This document shows positions 26,409 through 38,087 of a stretch of DNA of 64,000 bases, piece by piece. How positions within the stretch are numbered: the stretch's first letter is position 1; each line of letters starts with the position of its first letter. The notes beneath the pieces were generated by a model, which saw nothing but the letters and a program-made list of their open reading frames with translations, ran no database searches and was not told where the DNA came from. The stretch is from an uncultured Bacillota bacterium (GTDB taxonomy: Bacteria > Bacillota_I > Bacilli_A > RFN20 > CAG-288): contig CASGEC010000001.1 in NCBI GenBank assembly GCA_949300365.1, forward strand, positions 86,545 to 150,544, read 5' to 3'. Position numbers and translations under genes: made by a program.

Positions 26409-27080
26409 ATGGACGGAAACAAATACCAGGCATTCGTCTTCGACATGGACGGAACGATCGTCTGCTCCATCGAGGATATCGGTGACGCAGTCAACTATTC
26501 CTTGGCTTATCACCATCTTCCAACGCATGCCATGTCGGACTATCCGGCCTTCCTCGGAAACGGTTCGGTGAAGCTGATCCAGAGGGCCTTGGGAAAGGAA
26601 CATCAGGACGCTTTCCAGAAGGTCTTCGATACCTATTATGACTATTATCTCAAGCACTATTGTGTCAAGACGCATCCCTATGAAGGCATAGTGGAGAGTC
26701 TTACCTATGCCAAGAAGAAAGGAATCCGTCTATTTGTCTATACCAACAAGCCGGAGAAAATCGCCCTTGAGGTTGCCGATCACTGCTTCGGAAAAGGCTT
26801 CTTCGACAAGATCGTCGGCATTCCTCTCGGTGGCAAGGTCAAACCCGACCCGGAGGCCTTCAACGAGCAGGTGATGAAACCCTATCATCTCGATCCGAAG
26901 GATTGTGCCTACTTCGGCGATTCCGTCACCGATATCCTGACAGCCAAAAACCTCGGCATCACGCATATGTATTCCGTCTCCTGGGGATTCATGGCAAGAG
27001 AAAGGCTTCTTGAAGAAAAGCCCTATCGTCTTCTTGACAAACCCACGGAAATCAAGGACGTCGCCATGGGGACGATTTAG
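26409..27080 (+). CDS. HAD-superfamily hydrolase (phosphoglycolate phosphatase/PpaX-like, subfamily IA)
   Basis: Motif I FVFDMDGTI, motif II TNK, motif III/IV K...GDSVTD. Start at M24 of ORF 26340-27080. Confidence 0.75.
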   Translation: MDGNKYQAFVFDMDGTIVCSIEDIGDAVNYSLAYHHLPTHAMSDYPAFLGNGSVKLIQRALGKEHQDAFQKVFDTYYDYYLKHYCVKTHPYEGIVESLTYAKKKGIRLFVYTNKPEKIALEVADHCFGKGFFDKIVGIPLGGKVKPDPEAFNEQVMKPYHLDPKDCAYFGDSVTDILTAKNLGITHMYSVSWGFMARERLLEEKPYRLLDKPTEIKDVAMGTI

Positions 27081-27085
27081 GCTTT

Positions 27086-29119
27086 TCACTGAAGGTCCGA
27101 AAGGCTTGGCGCTTGGCCGAGCCATTTTCTTTGCACGGTATCCAAAGGAACAAAGCGATAGGGATGGAAACCCGTGATGTTGCTTGCTGCCCGCAGCATG
27201 GCGATCTTCATCGCTTGGTATTTGCCGATGGGGCTGGAGTTGAAGTCATCGACGGGATCCTGCTTCAAATCCAGGGAATAGAGGTAGGGATCGAGGGAGA
27301 AGGATTCTCCGAAGAGGCTCGTTAGGCTGTCTGAGAGGACGACATCGCTTTCGTTGTAGCCACCGCCATTGAAGAAAATCGGGAGATTGAGGTAATTCGT
27401 ATCCTCTTTTTTGGTTAGGACATGGGACTGCTGTTCCTTGATCATCTTCTTCAAGGGCAAATAGTCATCCTCGGTGACGAAGACGGAAAAGCCATCGCCC
27501 AGTCCGCCGTGGGCAAGGATCAGTGCCGCGATGTTTTCCAAAAGCAGGGACTCGAAGGAAAGGTCATCGTATTTCTTCCAATCATAGAAACGGGTATCGC
27601 CATCGACCTCCACCAGGACAGGGTAGGAAGTCCGTGCCATGTTGGAAGGCTGCACATCGCCAAAGTACATGCCCGTGATCAAGGAGAGCAGGGAGGTAAT
27701 GTTGGAATAGAGGAAGCTTCCTTGCGGGATGGTGTCCAAGAAGATGGCGGAAATGCCGGAGTTATAGAAGAAGCAGTCCTTGATGGACATCGAGCCTTTG
27801 TAGACCTTCTTTCCGGAAGCATCAAGGAAACCTTCCGTGTTGGTCAGGCTTTCGGCAATCGTATCAATGGCTGAGGCATAGTCTTCCTTGTCGTAAGAGC
27901 CTTCCTCCACACCGACGAATTCGTTAGCCTGCGTGTTGTAGATCGCCCCATGGGAGAGCAGGGAGTCGGCCCTGTAATCGAATTTGTCCAAGTCCGCAAG
28001 TGTCTGCGGGGCGAGATATTCTTTCGCCGTTGTCTTGTGCTTGACGCCGTTTCCATCCTCGTAGATGACTTCCTTGTTACCGTCGACCTCGTTGAACTCA
28101 TTGCTTCCGGTCTTGACGAGGAATTCCATGGCGTTCTGCAAAAGGCAGTTTTCCACTGTCAGGTCCAGACTGGAGTAGCTCCTGAGGACGTTCCTTCCTT
28201 TTTCGATGACGGAATCCTTGATCTGGATGCCATTGCCGTTTATCTCCATGACAGTCCCCGTATAGGCGAGATTGGAGAGGTTTCCGGCGATGTTGTCGGC
28301 ATTGGCAAAATGGACATCCTCAAGGGTGATGTCGTCTCCTTCCACATAGAAGCCGATGTTGTCCTGGCCATAGAGGGCGAAGATGGGAAGGCCGCTATTC
28401 GTGATTGTGGTTCCGGGCGTGTTCGGGTCTCCAAGGCTGACATAAAGAAGCGGGCCGCGGTAGAGGTCGTTTTCTCCCAGGATGGCATTTGTCGTCTTGT
28501 TTCCGAGGCTGTCGGTGATGGTCTGCTCCTGGGAAGGGTAGCAGAGATCATGAAGGTTGATCTCAAAGCCATTGCCATAGAAATCCTTTTGGATATGGAC
28601 GGCAGCATGGCGGAGAAGGGAGACGGGGGTCTCGGGCTTCTTTTCGTTCCATAGGTCGAGATAGGTGTGGTCGTATGTGGTTTCGAAAGAATAGAGATCC
28701 GAATTCCGGAAAGGCCTGAATGTATTGCCATCCTTTTGGCCAAAGAGGGAGACGTTTTCACTCGATGAAGTGAGATTTCCAGCCTTATCTTGCTTCATTG
28801 ATCCATCGGCATTCATTTGATAGGCTCTATCGAAGTTGAGAAGGTTTTTCCTTAGGACAACAGGGATGCCGGTTGCGGAATCATTTGTTGCCGCCATCAA
28901 GTCCTCATAGTCGTAGACGTTCATGGCCTCCTCGATATCAAATGTGAGCGCCCCGTTCCCTCGGGAAGAAACAGGATTGACGAAGGTGATGGAAGCCTTT
29001 CCTTCCTCAAGGAGCGTGATTTCATGATTGGCAAGATCGACTTCCACATTCTCGCTGCTTTCGACCTGTATCTCGCTTTCCTTGAAGCTTGTCGTTCCGA
29101 AAATATCGATATCAAACAT
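27086..29119 (-). CDS. large hypothetical protein with predicted right-handed parallel beta-helix (pectin-lyase-like) repeats
   Basis: 677 aa. Repeated N-x-x-I/V-x-N-type rungs (VENCLLQN, IKDSVIEKG, IKDCFFYNSG). No signal peptide. The start ATG overlaps the stop of the upstream gene (TGATG). Confidence 0.55.
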   Translation of the reverse strand: MFDIDIFGTTSFKESEIQVESSENVEVDLANHEITLLEEGKASITFVNPVSSRGNGALTFDIEEAMNVYDYEDLMAATNDSATGIPVVLRKNLLNFDRAYQMNADGSMKQDKAGNLTSSSENVSLFGQKDGNTFRPFRNSDLYSFETTYDHTYLDLWNEKKPETPVSLLRHAAVHIQKDFYGNGFEINLHDLCYPSQEQTITDSLGNKTTNAILGENDLYRGPLLYVSLGDPNTPGTTITNSGLPIFALYGQDNIGFYVEGDDITLEDVHFANADNIAGNLSNLAYTGTVMEINGNGIQIKDSVIEKGRNVLRSYSSLDLTVENCLLQNAMEFLVKTGSNEFNEVDGNKEVIYEDGNGVKHKTTAKEYLAPQTLADLDKFDYRADSLLSHGAIYNTQANEFVGVEEGSYDKEDYASAIDTIAESLTNTEGFLDASGKKVYKGSMSIKDCFFYNSGISAIFLDTIPQGSFLYSNITSLLSLITGMYFGDVQPSNMARTSYPVLVEVDGDTRFYDWKKYDDLSFESLLLENIAALILAHGGLGDGFSVFVTEDDYLPLKKMIKEQQSHVLTKKEDTNYLNLPIFFNGGGYNESDVVLSDSLTSLFGESFSLDPYLYSLDLKQDPVDDFNSSPIGKYQAMKIAMLRAASNITGFHPYRFVPLDTVQRKWLGQAPSLSDLQ

Positions 29120-29643
29120 CAGAGAAGCGTCAGGCGTCTTCCTTTCGTAGGCTTGGCGCTGTCATAGAGGCCGACGTGGTTCACGCCAGATATGGATTGG
29201 CTGGAAAAGGGAATCGTCGGTGTGACGATGATGGCTCCGGAATCGCCGACAATCCTGGCCAGGAAGTAGTCGGAGACGTTCTCCTTCTGGTTTCGGCATT
29301 CGACACGGCACGTCCCTTCCTCATGAAAGACAAGATAGCTGTTCTCCCCATCCGACTCAATCGTGGCGATGGCGCTTTCCTCTCTAGTCTCAGGGTCGAG
29401 ACTGGACCAGGCAAGCTCGTTTCCTTCGCTTAGGGGATATTGGTCGTCATAGATGGGCTCTGCCTTGAGAAGTGTCGTTTTCTGGGAAAGGGAAAAAGGA
29501 TTTTCTTCACCGCTTTGGTAATCCCACCGGATTCCGGTGATGTCCGTTTCCACGGAGCGGATGATGACGGTCGAGGTGACGAAGGCGAAGATGGCGATGA
29601 GGAAGGGAAGGAACAGAAGGAAAAGGATCGCTTTCTTTCTCAT
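29119..29643 (-). CDS. membrane-anchored hypothetical protein (N-terminal TM/signal anchor, extracytoplasmic domain)
   Basis: 174 aa starting MRKKAILFLLFLPFLIAIFAFVTS. It is translationally coupled at both ends (ATGA upstream, TGATG downstream). Confidence 0.5.
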   Translation of the reverse strand: MRKKAILFLLFLPFLIAIFAFVTSTVIIRSVETDITGIRWDYQSGEENPFSLSQKTTLLKAEPIYDDQYPLSEGNELAWSSLDPETREESAIATIESDGENSYLVFHEEGTCRVECRNQKENVSDYFLARIVGDSGAIIVTPTIPFSSQSISGVNHVGLYDSAKPTKGRRLTLL

Positions 29644-29975
29644 GATTGCGCCTCCCTTTCATAGCGAAGGAAAAGCTTCTCCATCGTGAGATAGAAATGA
29701 AGGGCAAGGAAACCGGAAAGAAGAAGGAGCAGGATCAAAGTACCAAGATAGAAGGTCAGCACACTTTGGTCGTCGAAGGGTTTGACAAGGGAAAGAAGGA
29801 AGGACAAGGCCAGGAAAAGGACAGGAAGGAGGAAATCCAAGGAGATATGCTGACGATTGGAGGGCACCAAGTCCATATCTTCCGCAACGCCAAGAAGGAC
29901 TTCCTTCGAAAGCTGAGGGAGTACATCAACCATGGGTAATGAGATACTGACCCGCATCCTCGTGATGACCACCAT
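29640..29975 (-). CDS. small two-TM membrane protein (hypothetical; start uncertain)
   Basis: 111 aa with a hydrophobic core (LDFLLPVLFLALSFLLSLV...LGTLILLLLLSGFLALHFYL). Its stop overlaps the start of the next gene. Its 5' end overlaps the annotated histidine kinase start on the other strand, so one of the two starts is wrong. Confidence 0.3.
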   Translation of the reverse strand: MVVITRMRVSISLPMVDVLPQLSKEVLLGVAEDMDLVPSNRQHISLDFLLPVLFLALSFLLSLVKPFDDQSVLTFYLGTLILLLLLSGFLALHFYLTMEKLFLRYEREAQS

Positions 29976-31302
29976 CTTCCTTCCAATGTATCTTTTTGCC
30001 TTCTACACCAAGAGGAGGGAACACTTCGTCTTGAGGACGATCATTTCATTTGCCATCCTTGTCGTTGTTGGTGTCCTTGCCGGAGTTGCCTTCTACTATT
30101 TCTATCGGATTCCATCGATAGCCGAAAACATCATCTGGTATGAGACTGGCTTTTATCTTCTTCTCTTTGTTGGATTCACGGCACTCCTCTGCCTTCCCTT
30201 CGATATGGGACTTTGGGGTCTTCTCTTCTGCTCATCGGCAGGGTACTGCGTTCAGCATATCGGTGCCCGCCTAGGCTCACTTCTGGAACTGGCGCTAGGC
30301 TATTCGATGATGACGGAACCCGTCATTCCTGAGCTTGCTGTCAAGTTCTTGACCTTCTTCCTGAATATTGGACTGAGTTTTGCGGTCTTCTTTTTCCTGA
30401 ATCGGCGGGGTGGGGCAATTGGGAAAGATACGATTGAAAAGATCGCCAATCCACGTCAGGTTCTCATCGCCTCAATCGTCTGCTTCATTATGGTTGGTTA
30501 CAACTCTTTCGGAACCAGTTATGTCACGGCTCCCTACTATTCGGATATGGATAATCTTCTTTTTCGGAACTGTTTTGTCTATGGAACGGTTTTCGTTTGC
30601 ATTACTTCCATAGTGATTGCCTTCCTCTGCCTTGTGGTGGAGTTCAGTTGGTTTATCGGCGGTCGTCTTATCCATCAGAAAGAGATGCTTGAAGGAATGC
30701 TGGAGGATCAGAAGAAAAACCTCGCCCTTGAGGAGGAGGCGACGAAGACCCTTGACGTTGCCGTTCATGACCTAAGGCACCTTATTGGGGATTTCGGAAA
30801 CGATATCGATTCAAAACGAAGAGCGAGGATTCTCAACACCATTAAGACATATGACTCCATCATCAAGACCGGCAACAAGGCCATTGATGTCATTTTGACG
30901 AAGAAGAGCCTCTACTGCTCCGAAAAGAGCATTCGCTTGACATGTTGCCTTGATGGAAAGAGCTTCGATTTCATGGAACCACACGAGCTCTACGCGCTCT
31001 TTGAGAACGCCCTCGACAATGCCATAGAAGCCGTCGAAGGACTGCCCCTTGAAAAAAGAAGTATCAGTGTCACGGAGAAGAGGCAGGGCATGTTCACAAG
31101 CCTTAGGGTGGAAAATTATTGTGACAAGAAGATCACCTTCCAGGATGGCCTGCCGCTGTCGGACAAAAAGGACGAGCACCATGGCTTTGGAATGATGAGC
31201 ATGGACATGATCGCCAGGAAATATGGAGGCAAGCTTGAAGCCAAGAAAGAGGGCGATCTCTTCTCTCTTGAAGTGTTCCTTATTGCCAAGAAAGCCTCTT
31301 AA
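29932..31302 (+). CDS. GHKL-type sensor histidine kinase, AgrC/ComD/LytTR-system (HPK10) family, orphan
   Basis: 456 aa. It has 6-7 N-terminal transmembrane helices, an H-box-like VAVHDLRHLIG, and a C-terminal HATPase_c_5-like domain (ELYALFENALDNAIEAV...HHGFGMMSMDMIARKYGG). No response regulator lies nearby. Confidence 0.65.
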   Translation: MGNEILTRILVMTTIFLPMYLFAFYTKRREHFVLRTIISFAILVVVGVLAGVAFYYFYRIPSIAENIIWYETGFYLLLFVGFTALLCLPFDMGLWGLLFCSSAGYCVQHIGARLGSLLELALGYSMMTEPVIPELAVKFLTFFLNIGLSFAVFFFLNRRGGAIGKDTIEKIANPRQVLIASIVCFIMVGYNSFGTSYVTAPYYSDMDNLLFRNCFVYGTVFVCITSIVIAFLCLVVEFSWFIGGRLIHQKEMLEGMLEDQKKNLALEEEATKTLDVAVHDLRHLIGDFGNDIDSKRRARILNTIKTYDSIIKTGNKAIDVILTKKSLYCSEKSIRLTCCLDGKSFDFMEPHELYALFENALDNAIEAVEGLPLEKRSISVTEKRQGMFTSLRVENYCDKKITFQDGLPLSDKKDEHHGFGMMSMDMIARKYGGKLEAKKEGDLFSLEVFLIAKKAS

Positions 31303-36263: not shown

Positions 36264-38087
36264 TCAGACGTTTCTGTTCTTCTTTGCTTGGGCCTCTGCC
36301 TTTCTCTTGGCGTTGGCTTCGGCCTTAAGCGTTCTATCGGCTTCGAACTTCTTTAGCTCTTCTTCAAAGTCGAGTCTCTTGAGTTCACCCGTCTGTTTTC
36401 CTTCCGCGATGAGCCTATCGTACTTGGCGTTGTTTGTCTCGCACCTTTTCCTAAGCAGGGCGATCTTTTCCTGGTGGATGGCTTCCTCGGCCTCGGCCTG
36501 CTCCTTGAGCATGCGCTTGGAAGGTTCGATCCATTCGGCATTGTTCTTGAGGGCAAGGGCCTTCTGATCCTCAAGGATCGCCTTCTTGTCAAGGGCGGAG
36601 AAGTTCTCGACATTCATGAAGAGGAACATGATGGCGATGATCAGATAGCAGAGGGATTCGCCACCGAAGTAGAGGAAGGTATTGGCAAGCTGCTGATTGG
36701 AAACGCTGTTGACGATGGAAGGCATGGTGTTGACGAGGTTGATGATGGCATTGGCAATGCCGGGCATGGCGACCATGATGGAACCATAGACAGCCATCGT
36801 GAAGCCATCGGTTCTCTTTCCATAAAGGGCTTCCTGGTGTTCGAGGACATCGGAGAGAAGGGCCATGGAAATATACATGGCAGGGACGGTTCCAAGGGCC
36901 TTGAGGCAGAAGCTGGCGATGGAGATGCCCCAGACGGCCGTCTCGTTTCCGCTGAAGGGAAGGACGAGGAAGCCAAGACAGCCTAGGACGAAGGCCATGA
37001 TGCCACCGACCTTGATGCAGTTTGCTTTTCCGAACTTGCGGGCAAGGGGCCAGATGACAAGCATGCCAAGGGCAGTCGGAATGGCACCGACCGTGTTGAT
37101 CGTGCCGGAGAGCTTCATGGCACCGTTGGTGAAGGCCTGGGAGAACCAGGAGGCATCGTTGTTCTTGAGCATGCCGCCGAGCTGATAGAGGAAGTAGAAG
37201 ACGATGATGAACCACCAGAACTTGTCCTTGACGCAGATTGTGGCCTGATCCTTCATCGGGATCTTCTTTTCCTGGAGGGCAGGATTGTCGGGATTGGCCA
37301 TGCGGAGCTTGACCTTCTCTTCTGTGATCCTTTCACGCGTGAAGAAGTACTCGATCAGACAGCCGATGAAGAGAGCGGCGATCATGATCACCATGATGAT
37401 GACCCATTTGCCGTTTGCGGCTTCCCTGGCGGCCTCATCGGCAAGCGTGTTGTTCGGTCCAGTCGGAAGAAGGCCGATAGCATCAACAAGGAAGGGGCCG
37501 ATCATGCCGGCAATACCGGAAGCGACAAGCTGGGCAGCATTGGAGGCCGTGGCAAGAAGGGAACGCTTCGAGCCATCCCTCGTGGACAGGTTGACGAGAG
37601 CGGAATGGGACGTGTAGTAGAAAGGATAGGCAAAGGCATAGTAGAGGTTGTAGCCGACGGCGATGAAGATGATCGTCAGCCAATTGGGATTGTCTGCCGT
37701 CGCCCCTTTCGGGAAGGGAACGAGGAAGAGAAGGAGAAGGGCGATAGCAATAAGCGGCATGCCGACGAGGATCAGCGGCCTTGCCTTACCGGCAACGGAA
37801 GGCTTTCTTTCGATCAGCCGGCCAATGGAAAGGTTGCCGATGACGATGATGATGGCCGAAATGATGGGAAGAAGGGTCGGGAAGAGGTTCATCCACTGCC
37901 CGAGGCCAAGGATTCGGACCCAATACTAGGAAAGATAGGTGTTGACGATACCATTAGCCATCAAGGCGAAGGCAGGGCCAAGAAGATAGCCCAAGGCCGT
38001 TTCCGGGAACAGCTTGACATCCGCGGTCTTGACCTTGGTCGAGAGAAGCGGCGTTTCGAAGAGACTCTTCTTCTGCGTTTTTTCCAT
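36264..38087 (-). pseudogene. MFS transporter, GPH (glycoside-pentoside-hexuronide:cation symporter) family, interrupted by one in-frame TAG; unusual charged C-terminal tail
   Basis: ORFs 37926-38168 and 36264-37892 are in the same frame, separated only by TAG at about 37926-37928. The hydrophobic transporter sequence is continuous across the stop (...NGIVNTYLS*YWVRILGLGQWMNLFPTLL...). The C-terminal ~100 aa are K/E/A-rich. Confidence 0.6.

Follow-up and report, generated by a model that had tools for sequence, protein, structure and literature searches.

A 16.5 kb deletion scar and a probable surface-protein pseudogene in an uncultured Bacillota bacterium of the family CAG-288

NosDFY consists of the ABC-2-type (ATP-binding cassette) exporter NosFY and the periplasmic beta-helix protein NosD. 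Among the systems known to us it is the closest analogue, apparently in architecture only, of a gene cluster whose damaged remains lie in the genome of an uncultured Bacillota bacterium (assembly GCA_949300365.1). The stretch analysed here, hereafter the window, comprises 64,000 nucleotides of contig CASGEC010000001.1 (positions 86,545 to 150,544, forward strand), and the locus in question is a run of three overlapping open reading frames (ORFs) of 111, 174 and 677 amino acids (aa) on its minus strand. The reading favoured here, with a probability of roughly 0.85, is that this run represents the scar of a 16.5 kb deletion next to a frameshifted surface-protein pseudogene, and thus ordinary gene decay. 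Even if the point lesions were errors of the consensus sequence, the trio would not be a system of three genes.

A preliminary description of this DNA had reported the three ORFs and their ATGA and TGATG overlaps, and the ORF listing and the sequence agree with the positions given there. The 111- and 174-aa ORFs share a 4-nt ATGA overlap at 29640-29643 (caatcATGAgaaag), and the 174- and 677-aa ORFs a 1-nt TGATG overlap at 29119 (cttctcTGATGtttgat). A strong GGGAGG is located 7 nt upstream of the 174-aa start; no comparable ribosome-binding site is found at the usual distance from the 677-aa start, where the nearest purine-rich stretch lies about 18 nt upstream. Searches of Pfam and NCBIfam gave no family for any of the three, just as none could be assigned before, and a scan of 26900-30200 for sigma-70-like promoters detected none, a result that is uninformative taken alone. 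The features of the coding region, with the evidence for each, are as follows.

27086..29119, minus strand: 677-aa ORF (ORF listing)
29119..29643, minus strand: 174-aa ORF (ORF listing)
29640..29975, minus strand: 111-aa ORF (ORF listing), chimeric and non-genic, with codons 46-111 from a permease gene and codons 1-45 antisense
27086..29643, minus strand: probable pseudogene of an 855-aa protein with a transmembrane (TM) helix, two immunoglobulin-like (Ig-like) domains and a beta-helix (99% identity to the homologue P0001 across both ORFs)
29155..29156, minus strand: frameshift site, CC for CCC, at codon 164 (Gln) (alignment to intact alleles)
27086..27088, minus strand: premature stop, TGA for GGA (Gly853) (relatives end in ...Q/H-G-K/R-A)

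The 174- and 677-aa ORFs belong to a single gene. With the 677-aa ORF as query, 386 homologues were obtained at query coverages of 85-100%; the best 120, which were listed, are all 780-915 aa long, and none is about 677 aa. The best match, P0001, has 855 aa, is 99% identical, begins with 163 residues that are those of the 174-aa ORF, and reads across the junction as ...LYDSAQAYERKTPDASLMFDIDI.... A profile search of 1.84 billion cluster representatives gave 517 matches (444 at E<=1e-10), the full-length members of which span profile positions 1-829 in one stretch; the family is isolated, as the profile reaches only these 517 representatives of its own. Contig-end fragments aside, the split gene occurs in none of the 386 (best 120 listed) and 517 matches. 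Conservation of the trio was checked in 80 related genomes, where the gene is a single ORF that follows an ABC ATPase gene and a full-length permease gene of about 530 codons. The split secreted protein with an anchored export partner, which the preliminary description preferred, is thus contradicted by relatives that are unsplit and by a trio that is not conserved, and its alternative of one frameshifted gene is the one that stands.

The lesion behind the split is a single base. Four conspecific alleles (P0001, P0123, P0124 and P0126) are all intact at 855 aa and read ...SAQAYERKTPDASLMFDIDI... in the region of the break. The contig that encodes P0001 (L001) is 99.7% identical to the window over 18.5 kb, and the only indel between them within the gene is a 1-nt gap in the window, which has agcgccaagcc for the agcgccCaagcc of relatives, one C of a CCC run being missing. 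The intact reading is agc gcc Caa gcc and that of the window agc gcc aag cct. With one C restored, the 174- and 677-aa ORFs fuse into an ORF of 852 aa, and the window gene, now split over two frames, is otherwise colinear with the family. The single-base correction foreseen in the preliminary description therefore works, whereas its proposed site does not hold: the lesion lies at 29155-29156, about 36 nt upstream of 29119. The shifted frame ends after 10 codons at the TGA at 29119-29121, which overlaps Met176 of the intact protein, the start of the 677-aa ORF. As this Met is replaced by A, S or Q in relatives at 72-84% identity, the TGATG "coupling" is accidental; the overlap has no counterpart in relatives, which read straight through, and is probably a by-product of where the shifted frame stops. 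The ATGA overlap between permease and 855-aa gene is widely conserved in relatives and was presumably inherited from that ancestral junction; its upstream partner in the window is only a stump. The stop at codon 853 removes the last three codons, which encode the conserved C-terminal GKA, and the ancestral TAA is found at 27077-27079.

The intact protein has a well-defined predicted architecture. The AlphaFold2 model of P0001, computed from 69 homologues, has a predicted local distance difference test score (pLDDT) of 90 and a predicted TM-score (pTM) of 0.89, and comprises a TM helix at residues 3-30, beta-sandwich domains at 37-142 and 156-243, and a beta-helix domain at approximately 260-830. 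The helix accords with the N-terminal anchor that had been ascribed to the 174-aa ORF. Foldseek with the full-length model matched only the two Ig-like domains, and this N-terminal pair resembles the tandem Ig-like domains of LigA, of the S-layer proteins Sap and EA1, and of intimin. After this result the C-terminal 609 residues (244-852 of the window protein) were modelled alone (pLDDT 93); all their top Foldseek matches are right-handed beta-helix proteins, and all are weak (best E=3e-3, TM-score about 0.2, 6-13% identity), among them GH110 (E=3e-3), the fucoidan lyase FdlA, VexL, pectate lyases and phage tailspikes. The beta-helix impression of the preliminary description is thus supported at the level of fold class by the model and these weak matches. 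The Pfam profiles Beta_helix, Pectate_lyase and NosD did not match the window ORFs or P0001, and Pfam thresholds relaxed to E<=0.1 to 1 added nothing for either; NCBIfam likewise gave no useful match for P0001; a precomputed PF13229 match exists in only two distant homologues, and a profile search of the PDB with the 855-aa family returned noise only. The frameshift falls within the second Ig-like domain (156-243), of which neither fragment has a complete copy. The 174-aa product, if made, would be a truncated anchor with one complete Ig-like domain, and the 677-aa product, if reinitiated, would have no export signal, begin in the broken Ig-like domain, and probably be cytoplasmic and inactive.

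The 111-aa ORF is the 3' stump of a permease gene fused across a deletion junction. Its residues 46-111 are 77% identical to residues 471-536 of the permease at the related locus L003 (BLASTP, E=3e-29), and its codons 1-45 run antisense both to what is left of a response-regulator gene and to the initial 44 nt of the adjacent histidine-kinase gene. The full permease has 536 aa and about 12 hydrophobic segments by hydropathy, the last two of which (residues 471-489 and 497-515) are encoded by the remnant. Of the two-TM protein in the preliminary description, the two hydrophobic segments remain and the gene does not, the ORF being a deletion chimera; the 111-aa sequence has no exact counterpart in the public protein collection. 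L002, L003 and L004 all have, directly before the 855-aa gene, a gene for a 536-aa multi-pass membrane protein, and there too the two genes overlap by ATGA. Matches within the permease family are to the Pfam models ABC2_membrane_4 (10/31 members) and ABC_tran_2 (5/31), and also to 12TM_1.

The deletion is visible in an intact strain of the same species (ENA ERZ16268102 scaffold_3, loci L085 and L092), which is 99.4% identical to the window at the nucleotide level. Homology between window and L085 stops exactly at 29839 (blastn; L085:3805 = window 29839), and homology to L092, on the kinase side, begins at 29831 (L092:9900 = window 29831). The intact strain has two copies of GGAAATCCA, 16,483 bp apart. 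In the window lineage these 16,483 bp were removed by recombination between the two copies, a microhomology-mediated deletion. The features at and around the junction are the following.

29640..29839, minus strand: permease 3' remnant, 66 codons and stop (BLASTP to the L003 permease)
29831..29839: deletion junction, 9-bp microhomology GGAAATCCA, present once in the window and twice in the intact strain
29832..29939, plus strand: LytTR response-regulator 3' remnant, 35 codons and stop (97% to conspecific L092)
29932..31302, plus strand: AgrC-like histidine kinase, HATPase_c_5 (Pfam match)
26409..27080, plus strand: convergent HAD hydrolase gene, a conserved downstream neighbour followed by potABCD, used as a synteny anchor

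In the intact strain the cluster diverges from a LytTR regulator/histidine kinase pair, and its minus-strand order is GH3, two small secreted proteins, a SipW-type signal peptidase, a membrane AAA+ ATPase, a Zn-ribbon protein, a lipoprotein, a protein of about 263 aa, a protein of about 950 aa, an ABC ATPase, the 536-aa 12-TM ABC-2-type permease and the 855-aa beta-helix protein. The deletion took most of this 11-12-gene surface/secretion cluster: most of the regulator, the GH3 gene, the two small secreted proteins, the signal peptidase (TIGR02228 above cutoff), the AAA+ ATPase (624 aa), the Zn-ribbon protein (367 aa), the lipoprotein (380 aa), the ~950-aa protein, the ABC ATPase and permease codons 1-470. 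The ~263-aa protein is counted as deleted by synteny with L003 and L005; the conspecific loci retrieved did not show it directly. The rest of the 64 kb window contains none of the deleted genes. Regulator and permease genes now adjoin back to back, with only the final 35 codons left of the one and the final 66 of the other. The regulator remnant is 63% identical to residues 202-236 of the L090 orthologue (E=3e-15) and 97% identical to residues 114-148 of the L092 LytTR ORF, and it shares 8 nt with the start of the kinase gene, an overlap also present in intact relatives. In L090 and L092, a Response_reg/LytTR gene precedes the kinase orthologue; the same deletion that removed the response regulator thus orphaned the neighbouring histidine kinase, which is a recent casualty and not a designed stand-alone sensor. 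As for the order of events, the deletion came first; the 855-aa gene of the window strain was then hit at two sites, codon 164, where a C was lost, and codon 853, where a stop arose.

Two observations concern the same region. On the plus strand, an ORF at 29646-29939, opposite the 111-aa ORF, has 97 aa from its first TTG start and is called publicly as an 80-aa gene; its interpretation as a gene for an AgrD-like signalling peptide was rejected, as it is the antisense of the permease stump together with the regulator stump. In the intact strain, the LytTR regulator is itself split (L092:9298-10008; 78-aa Response_reg and 148-aa LytTR parts), and so is the GH3 gene (L092:6051-9099; 760 and 271 aa), from which gene decay seems to be common in this species.

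Substitution patterns indicate that the 855-aa gene probably is a pseudogene in the window strain. Window and L001 differ in it at 16 positions (13 non-synonymous, 3 synonymous), whereas the 15 flanking genes, 12.2 kb in all, differ at 17 (7 of them non-synonymous and 10 synonymous); gene and flanks are thus unlike both in rate (p=4e-5) and in the ratio of non-synonymous to synonymous changes (Fisher p=0.03). Within the 6.74 kb common to three conspecifics, 12 of the 16 changes private to the window fall in this gene (p=0.003), and by-eye classification counts nine of them as non-synonymous, the nonsense codon among these, and two as synonymous, the remaining one being the 1-nt deletion. The gene appears to be under relaxed constraint in the window. 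Separately, when the window gene is compared with P0001, P0123, P0124 and P0126, conspecific alleles of the 855-aa protein differ at several surface-loop positions (e.g. KQDEDGNLLSS/KQDKDGNLISS and DLMAATN/DLVVATN), and the genes that flank the 855-aa gene are nearly identical among conspecifics; this variation suggests diversifying selection or recombination at the locus, independent of pseudogenisation.

Several points weigh against reading the locus as a deletion scar with a decayed gene. The frameshift lies in a short C run of an assembly that possibly is a metagenome-assembled genome, and may be an error of base calling or of the consensus. Another public contig, ERZ16268115 scaffold_0, differs in length and is 100% identical over 10-21 kb with the frameshift included; it may stem from the same sample or reads and so may not be independent. 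The strains L001 and L091 carry the deletion and keep the 855-aa gene intact, with two private changes each, which means that the gene is not obviously useless without its partners. The substitution counts are small, and given the protein polymorphism among conspecifics, part of the non-synonymous excess could come from diversifying selection or recombination. Lastly, the function proposed below for the intact protein, drawn only from gene order and fold class, is doubtful.

One rival explanation holds that errors of sequencing or assembly produced the frameshift, and perhaps also the stop at codon 853, and that the strain encodes an intact 855-aa protein without its operon partners. Such an error would need to involve one base of a CCC run in a source that probably is metagenome-derived; the state of the gene in the other deletion strains is compatible with it, and a 4-nt indel in an MFS gene of the window could indicate a consensus of lower quality. 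A run of three bases is not a typical error hotspot, however, the identical sequence recurs on the second contig, and neither a nonsense codon nor a significant, mostly non-synonymous excess of private changes is expected from consensus errors. The explanation is considered unlikely, albeit the most serious of the alternatives. The MFS_2 transporter gene in question (36264-37892, minus strand) encodes 542 aa in the window and 690 aa in L001, L091 and L092; 4 nt are missing at about 36279 in an AGAA-rich stretch, the C-terminal ~150 residues are lost, and the indel is the second frameshift in a stretch of 18.5 kb that is otherwise 99.7% identical.

The two readings that would keep the locus functional are far less probable. 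It might be supposed that a coupled 174-aa anchor and a signal-less 677-aa beta-helix subunit form a split protein, with the 111-aa product as a third membrane component, since the stop-start overlaps are present and the 174-aa ORF retains the TM helix and one complete Ig-like domain. Against this stand the lack of split relatives and of split conspecific alleles, a break inside a folded Ig-like domain, the non-conserved start Met of the 677-aa ORF and its missing ribosome-binding site, and the origin of the 111-aa ORF as a deletion chimera that overlaps the kinase gene; taken together they make a functional split protein very improbable. Still more remote is a programmed -1 ribosomal frameshift, or transcriptional slippage, at the CC site that restores the full-length protein: judged from the sequence, the wild-type reading would be regained by a -1 shift at GCC-AAG, but agc gcc aag cct contains no X XXY YYZ slippery heptamer, and all relatives are in frame, with no conserved two-frame arrangement. 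Nor was a conserved structure noticed downstream, though no search was aimed at one. A deletion scar beside a decayed surface-protein gene accounts for the locus better than either.

The intact parent cluster can be described from relatives of the window. An ABC ATPase gene and a gene for a permease of about 530 aa lie directly upstream of the 855-aa gene in 65-77 of about 80 species-level loci, where the permease stop abuts or overlaps the 855-aa start; this upstream pair is also present in conspecific L085. Only the window type lacks the ABC ATPase and a full permease among these loci, the last 66 permease codons being left. The closest models for the ABC ATPase of relatives are DrrA/GldA-like. 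The operon of the family runs from small secreted proteins (one to several) and a SipW-type peptidase through an AAA+ ATPase and its Zn-ribbon partner to the ABC exporter, ATPase before permease, and on to the beta-helix protein and a Flg_new lipoprotein; such a cluster surrounds the beta-helix gene in approximately 62/80 related loci (e.g. L024:2101-13518; L092:1-5936). The AAA+ ATPase has 5-6 N-terminal TM segments and an McrB-like LDEMNISRVEYYFADFLS motif, and its partner an invariant YENRF motif and a CxxC...CxxC ribbon. The signal peptidase I of relatives is of the SipW/archaeal type (TIGR02228 58-62 bits, cutoff 51.85). An N-terminal G-[FY]-[AS]-x-[WFY]-[VI]-[IL] motif is common to the secreted members, including g263, g950 and giant Flg_new proteins, and the N-terminus of the beta-helix protein has a related [IL][FL]AFV[TS] motif.

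Profile searches of the PDB with the permease, the AAA+ protein, its partner and the small secreted proteins returned noise only (nanobodies, zinc ribbons, TMEM87A), and the literature on SipW with ABC and beta-helix proteins, on TasA-like clusters and on SipW in these taxa contained no description of the cluster. A reading of the cluster as a defence system was rejected: the AAA+ protein partially matches the PADLOC candidate PDC-M26A (E=6e-43), the ABC ATPase has generic ATPase matches only, and PADLOC returned nothing for the beta-helix protein, the permease or the peptidase. Sub-threshold Cupredoxin_1 matches of the lipoprotein were likewise dropped as a Nos-like clue. As further observations, giant proteins of 1000-1800 aa with Flg_new and MBG repeats and the same signal motif are found downstream of the cluster in 10 loci, and the one at L041:14300-19720 bears a Hint/intein-like module near its C-terminus.

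From these data it is tentatively proposed that the broken gene marks an undescribed, widely conserved envelope cluster of gut Bacillota that would build or secrete a surface structure. Its range, proposed with equal reserve, would include RFN20, RF39, Acholeplasmatales, Anaeroplasmataceae and metagenome-assembled genomes labelled Clostridia or Christensenellaceae. A further and more doubtful proposal concerns the intact 855-aa protein, which would sit on the outer face of the membrane of a probably wall-less cell, where the N-terminal helix would hold it unless the SipW-type peptidase sets it free. Its two Ig-like domains may serve as a stalk that holds the beta-helix outward, and the protein may work with the ABC-2 exporter encoded just upstream, as NosD does with NosFY; beta-helix protein and exporter would then be part of a SipW-dependent module for the assembly of surface proteins.

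The host lineage resembles Candidatus Enterosoma, which has been assigned to RFN20, family CAG-288 (PMC8035907), and the orthologue of the 855-aa protein in Ca. E. merdigallinarum is 84% identical. The family CAG-288 has been predicted to be peptidoglycan-deficient, sortase-lacking and reductively evolving (PMC10868615), and the predicted lack of peptidoglycan and sortases fits a surface protein that is anchored in the membrane and not in the wall. The feature in the window is a routine instance of genome decay in a gut lineage that evolves reductively and probably has no cell wall. In the annotation, one pseudogene, two gene remnants and a deletion junction should take the place of three hypothetical proteins and of the publicly called 80-aa ORF on the opposite strand. 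The wider interest lies in the intact parent cluster, which has no characterised member, is conserved in at least 80 species-level genomes and shows a present/deleted polymorphism within one species. If the proposal is true, the species carries a natural 16.5 kb knock-out allele beside the intact allele, which would permit a comparison between strains.

In comparison with NosDFY, intact relatives of the window likewise have an ABC ATPase, an ABC-2-type membrane protein and an adjacent gene for an extracytoplasmic beta-helix protein. Unlike NosDFY, their permease is a fused 12-TM protein, their beta-helix protein carries a TM helix of its own as well as two Ig-like domains, there is no nosZ, and the window retains only the broken beta-helix gene. 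All tests of NosD membership failed: the 855-aa protein matched NosD neither in Pfam nor in the PDB sequence search, and NosD is absent from the top 50 fold matches.

The tapA-sipW-tasA operon provides a second point of comparison, in that the SipW-type peptidase of relatives stands next to several secreted proteins with a common signal motif. This peptidase is present in the relatives and in conspecific L092 and absent from the window, where its gene lay inside the deletion. The cluster differs by the addition of an ABC exporter, a membrane McrB-like AAA+ ATPase and a beta-helix protein, and the small secreted proteins have no homology to TasA or camelysin by Pfam, NCBIfam or PDB profiles, sharing the signal-peptide motif only. 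The analogy would accordingly be confined to the peptidase and a dedicated class of signals. With pectin-lyase-fold enzymes and depolymerases, the window protein appears, by weak matches, to share the fold class of its C-terminal 609 residues; it differs in having no Pfam match, in belonging to an isolated family and in that catalytic residues were not identified.

The closest likeness is with ordinary pseudogenes and microhomology-mediated deletions, with which the locus has in common a frameshift, a nonsense codon, a non-synonymous excess and a 9-bp direct repeat. The feature in the window belongs with such pseudogenes and deletions of reductively evolving genomes, from which it differs in nothing essential.

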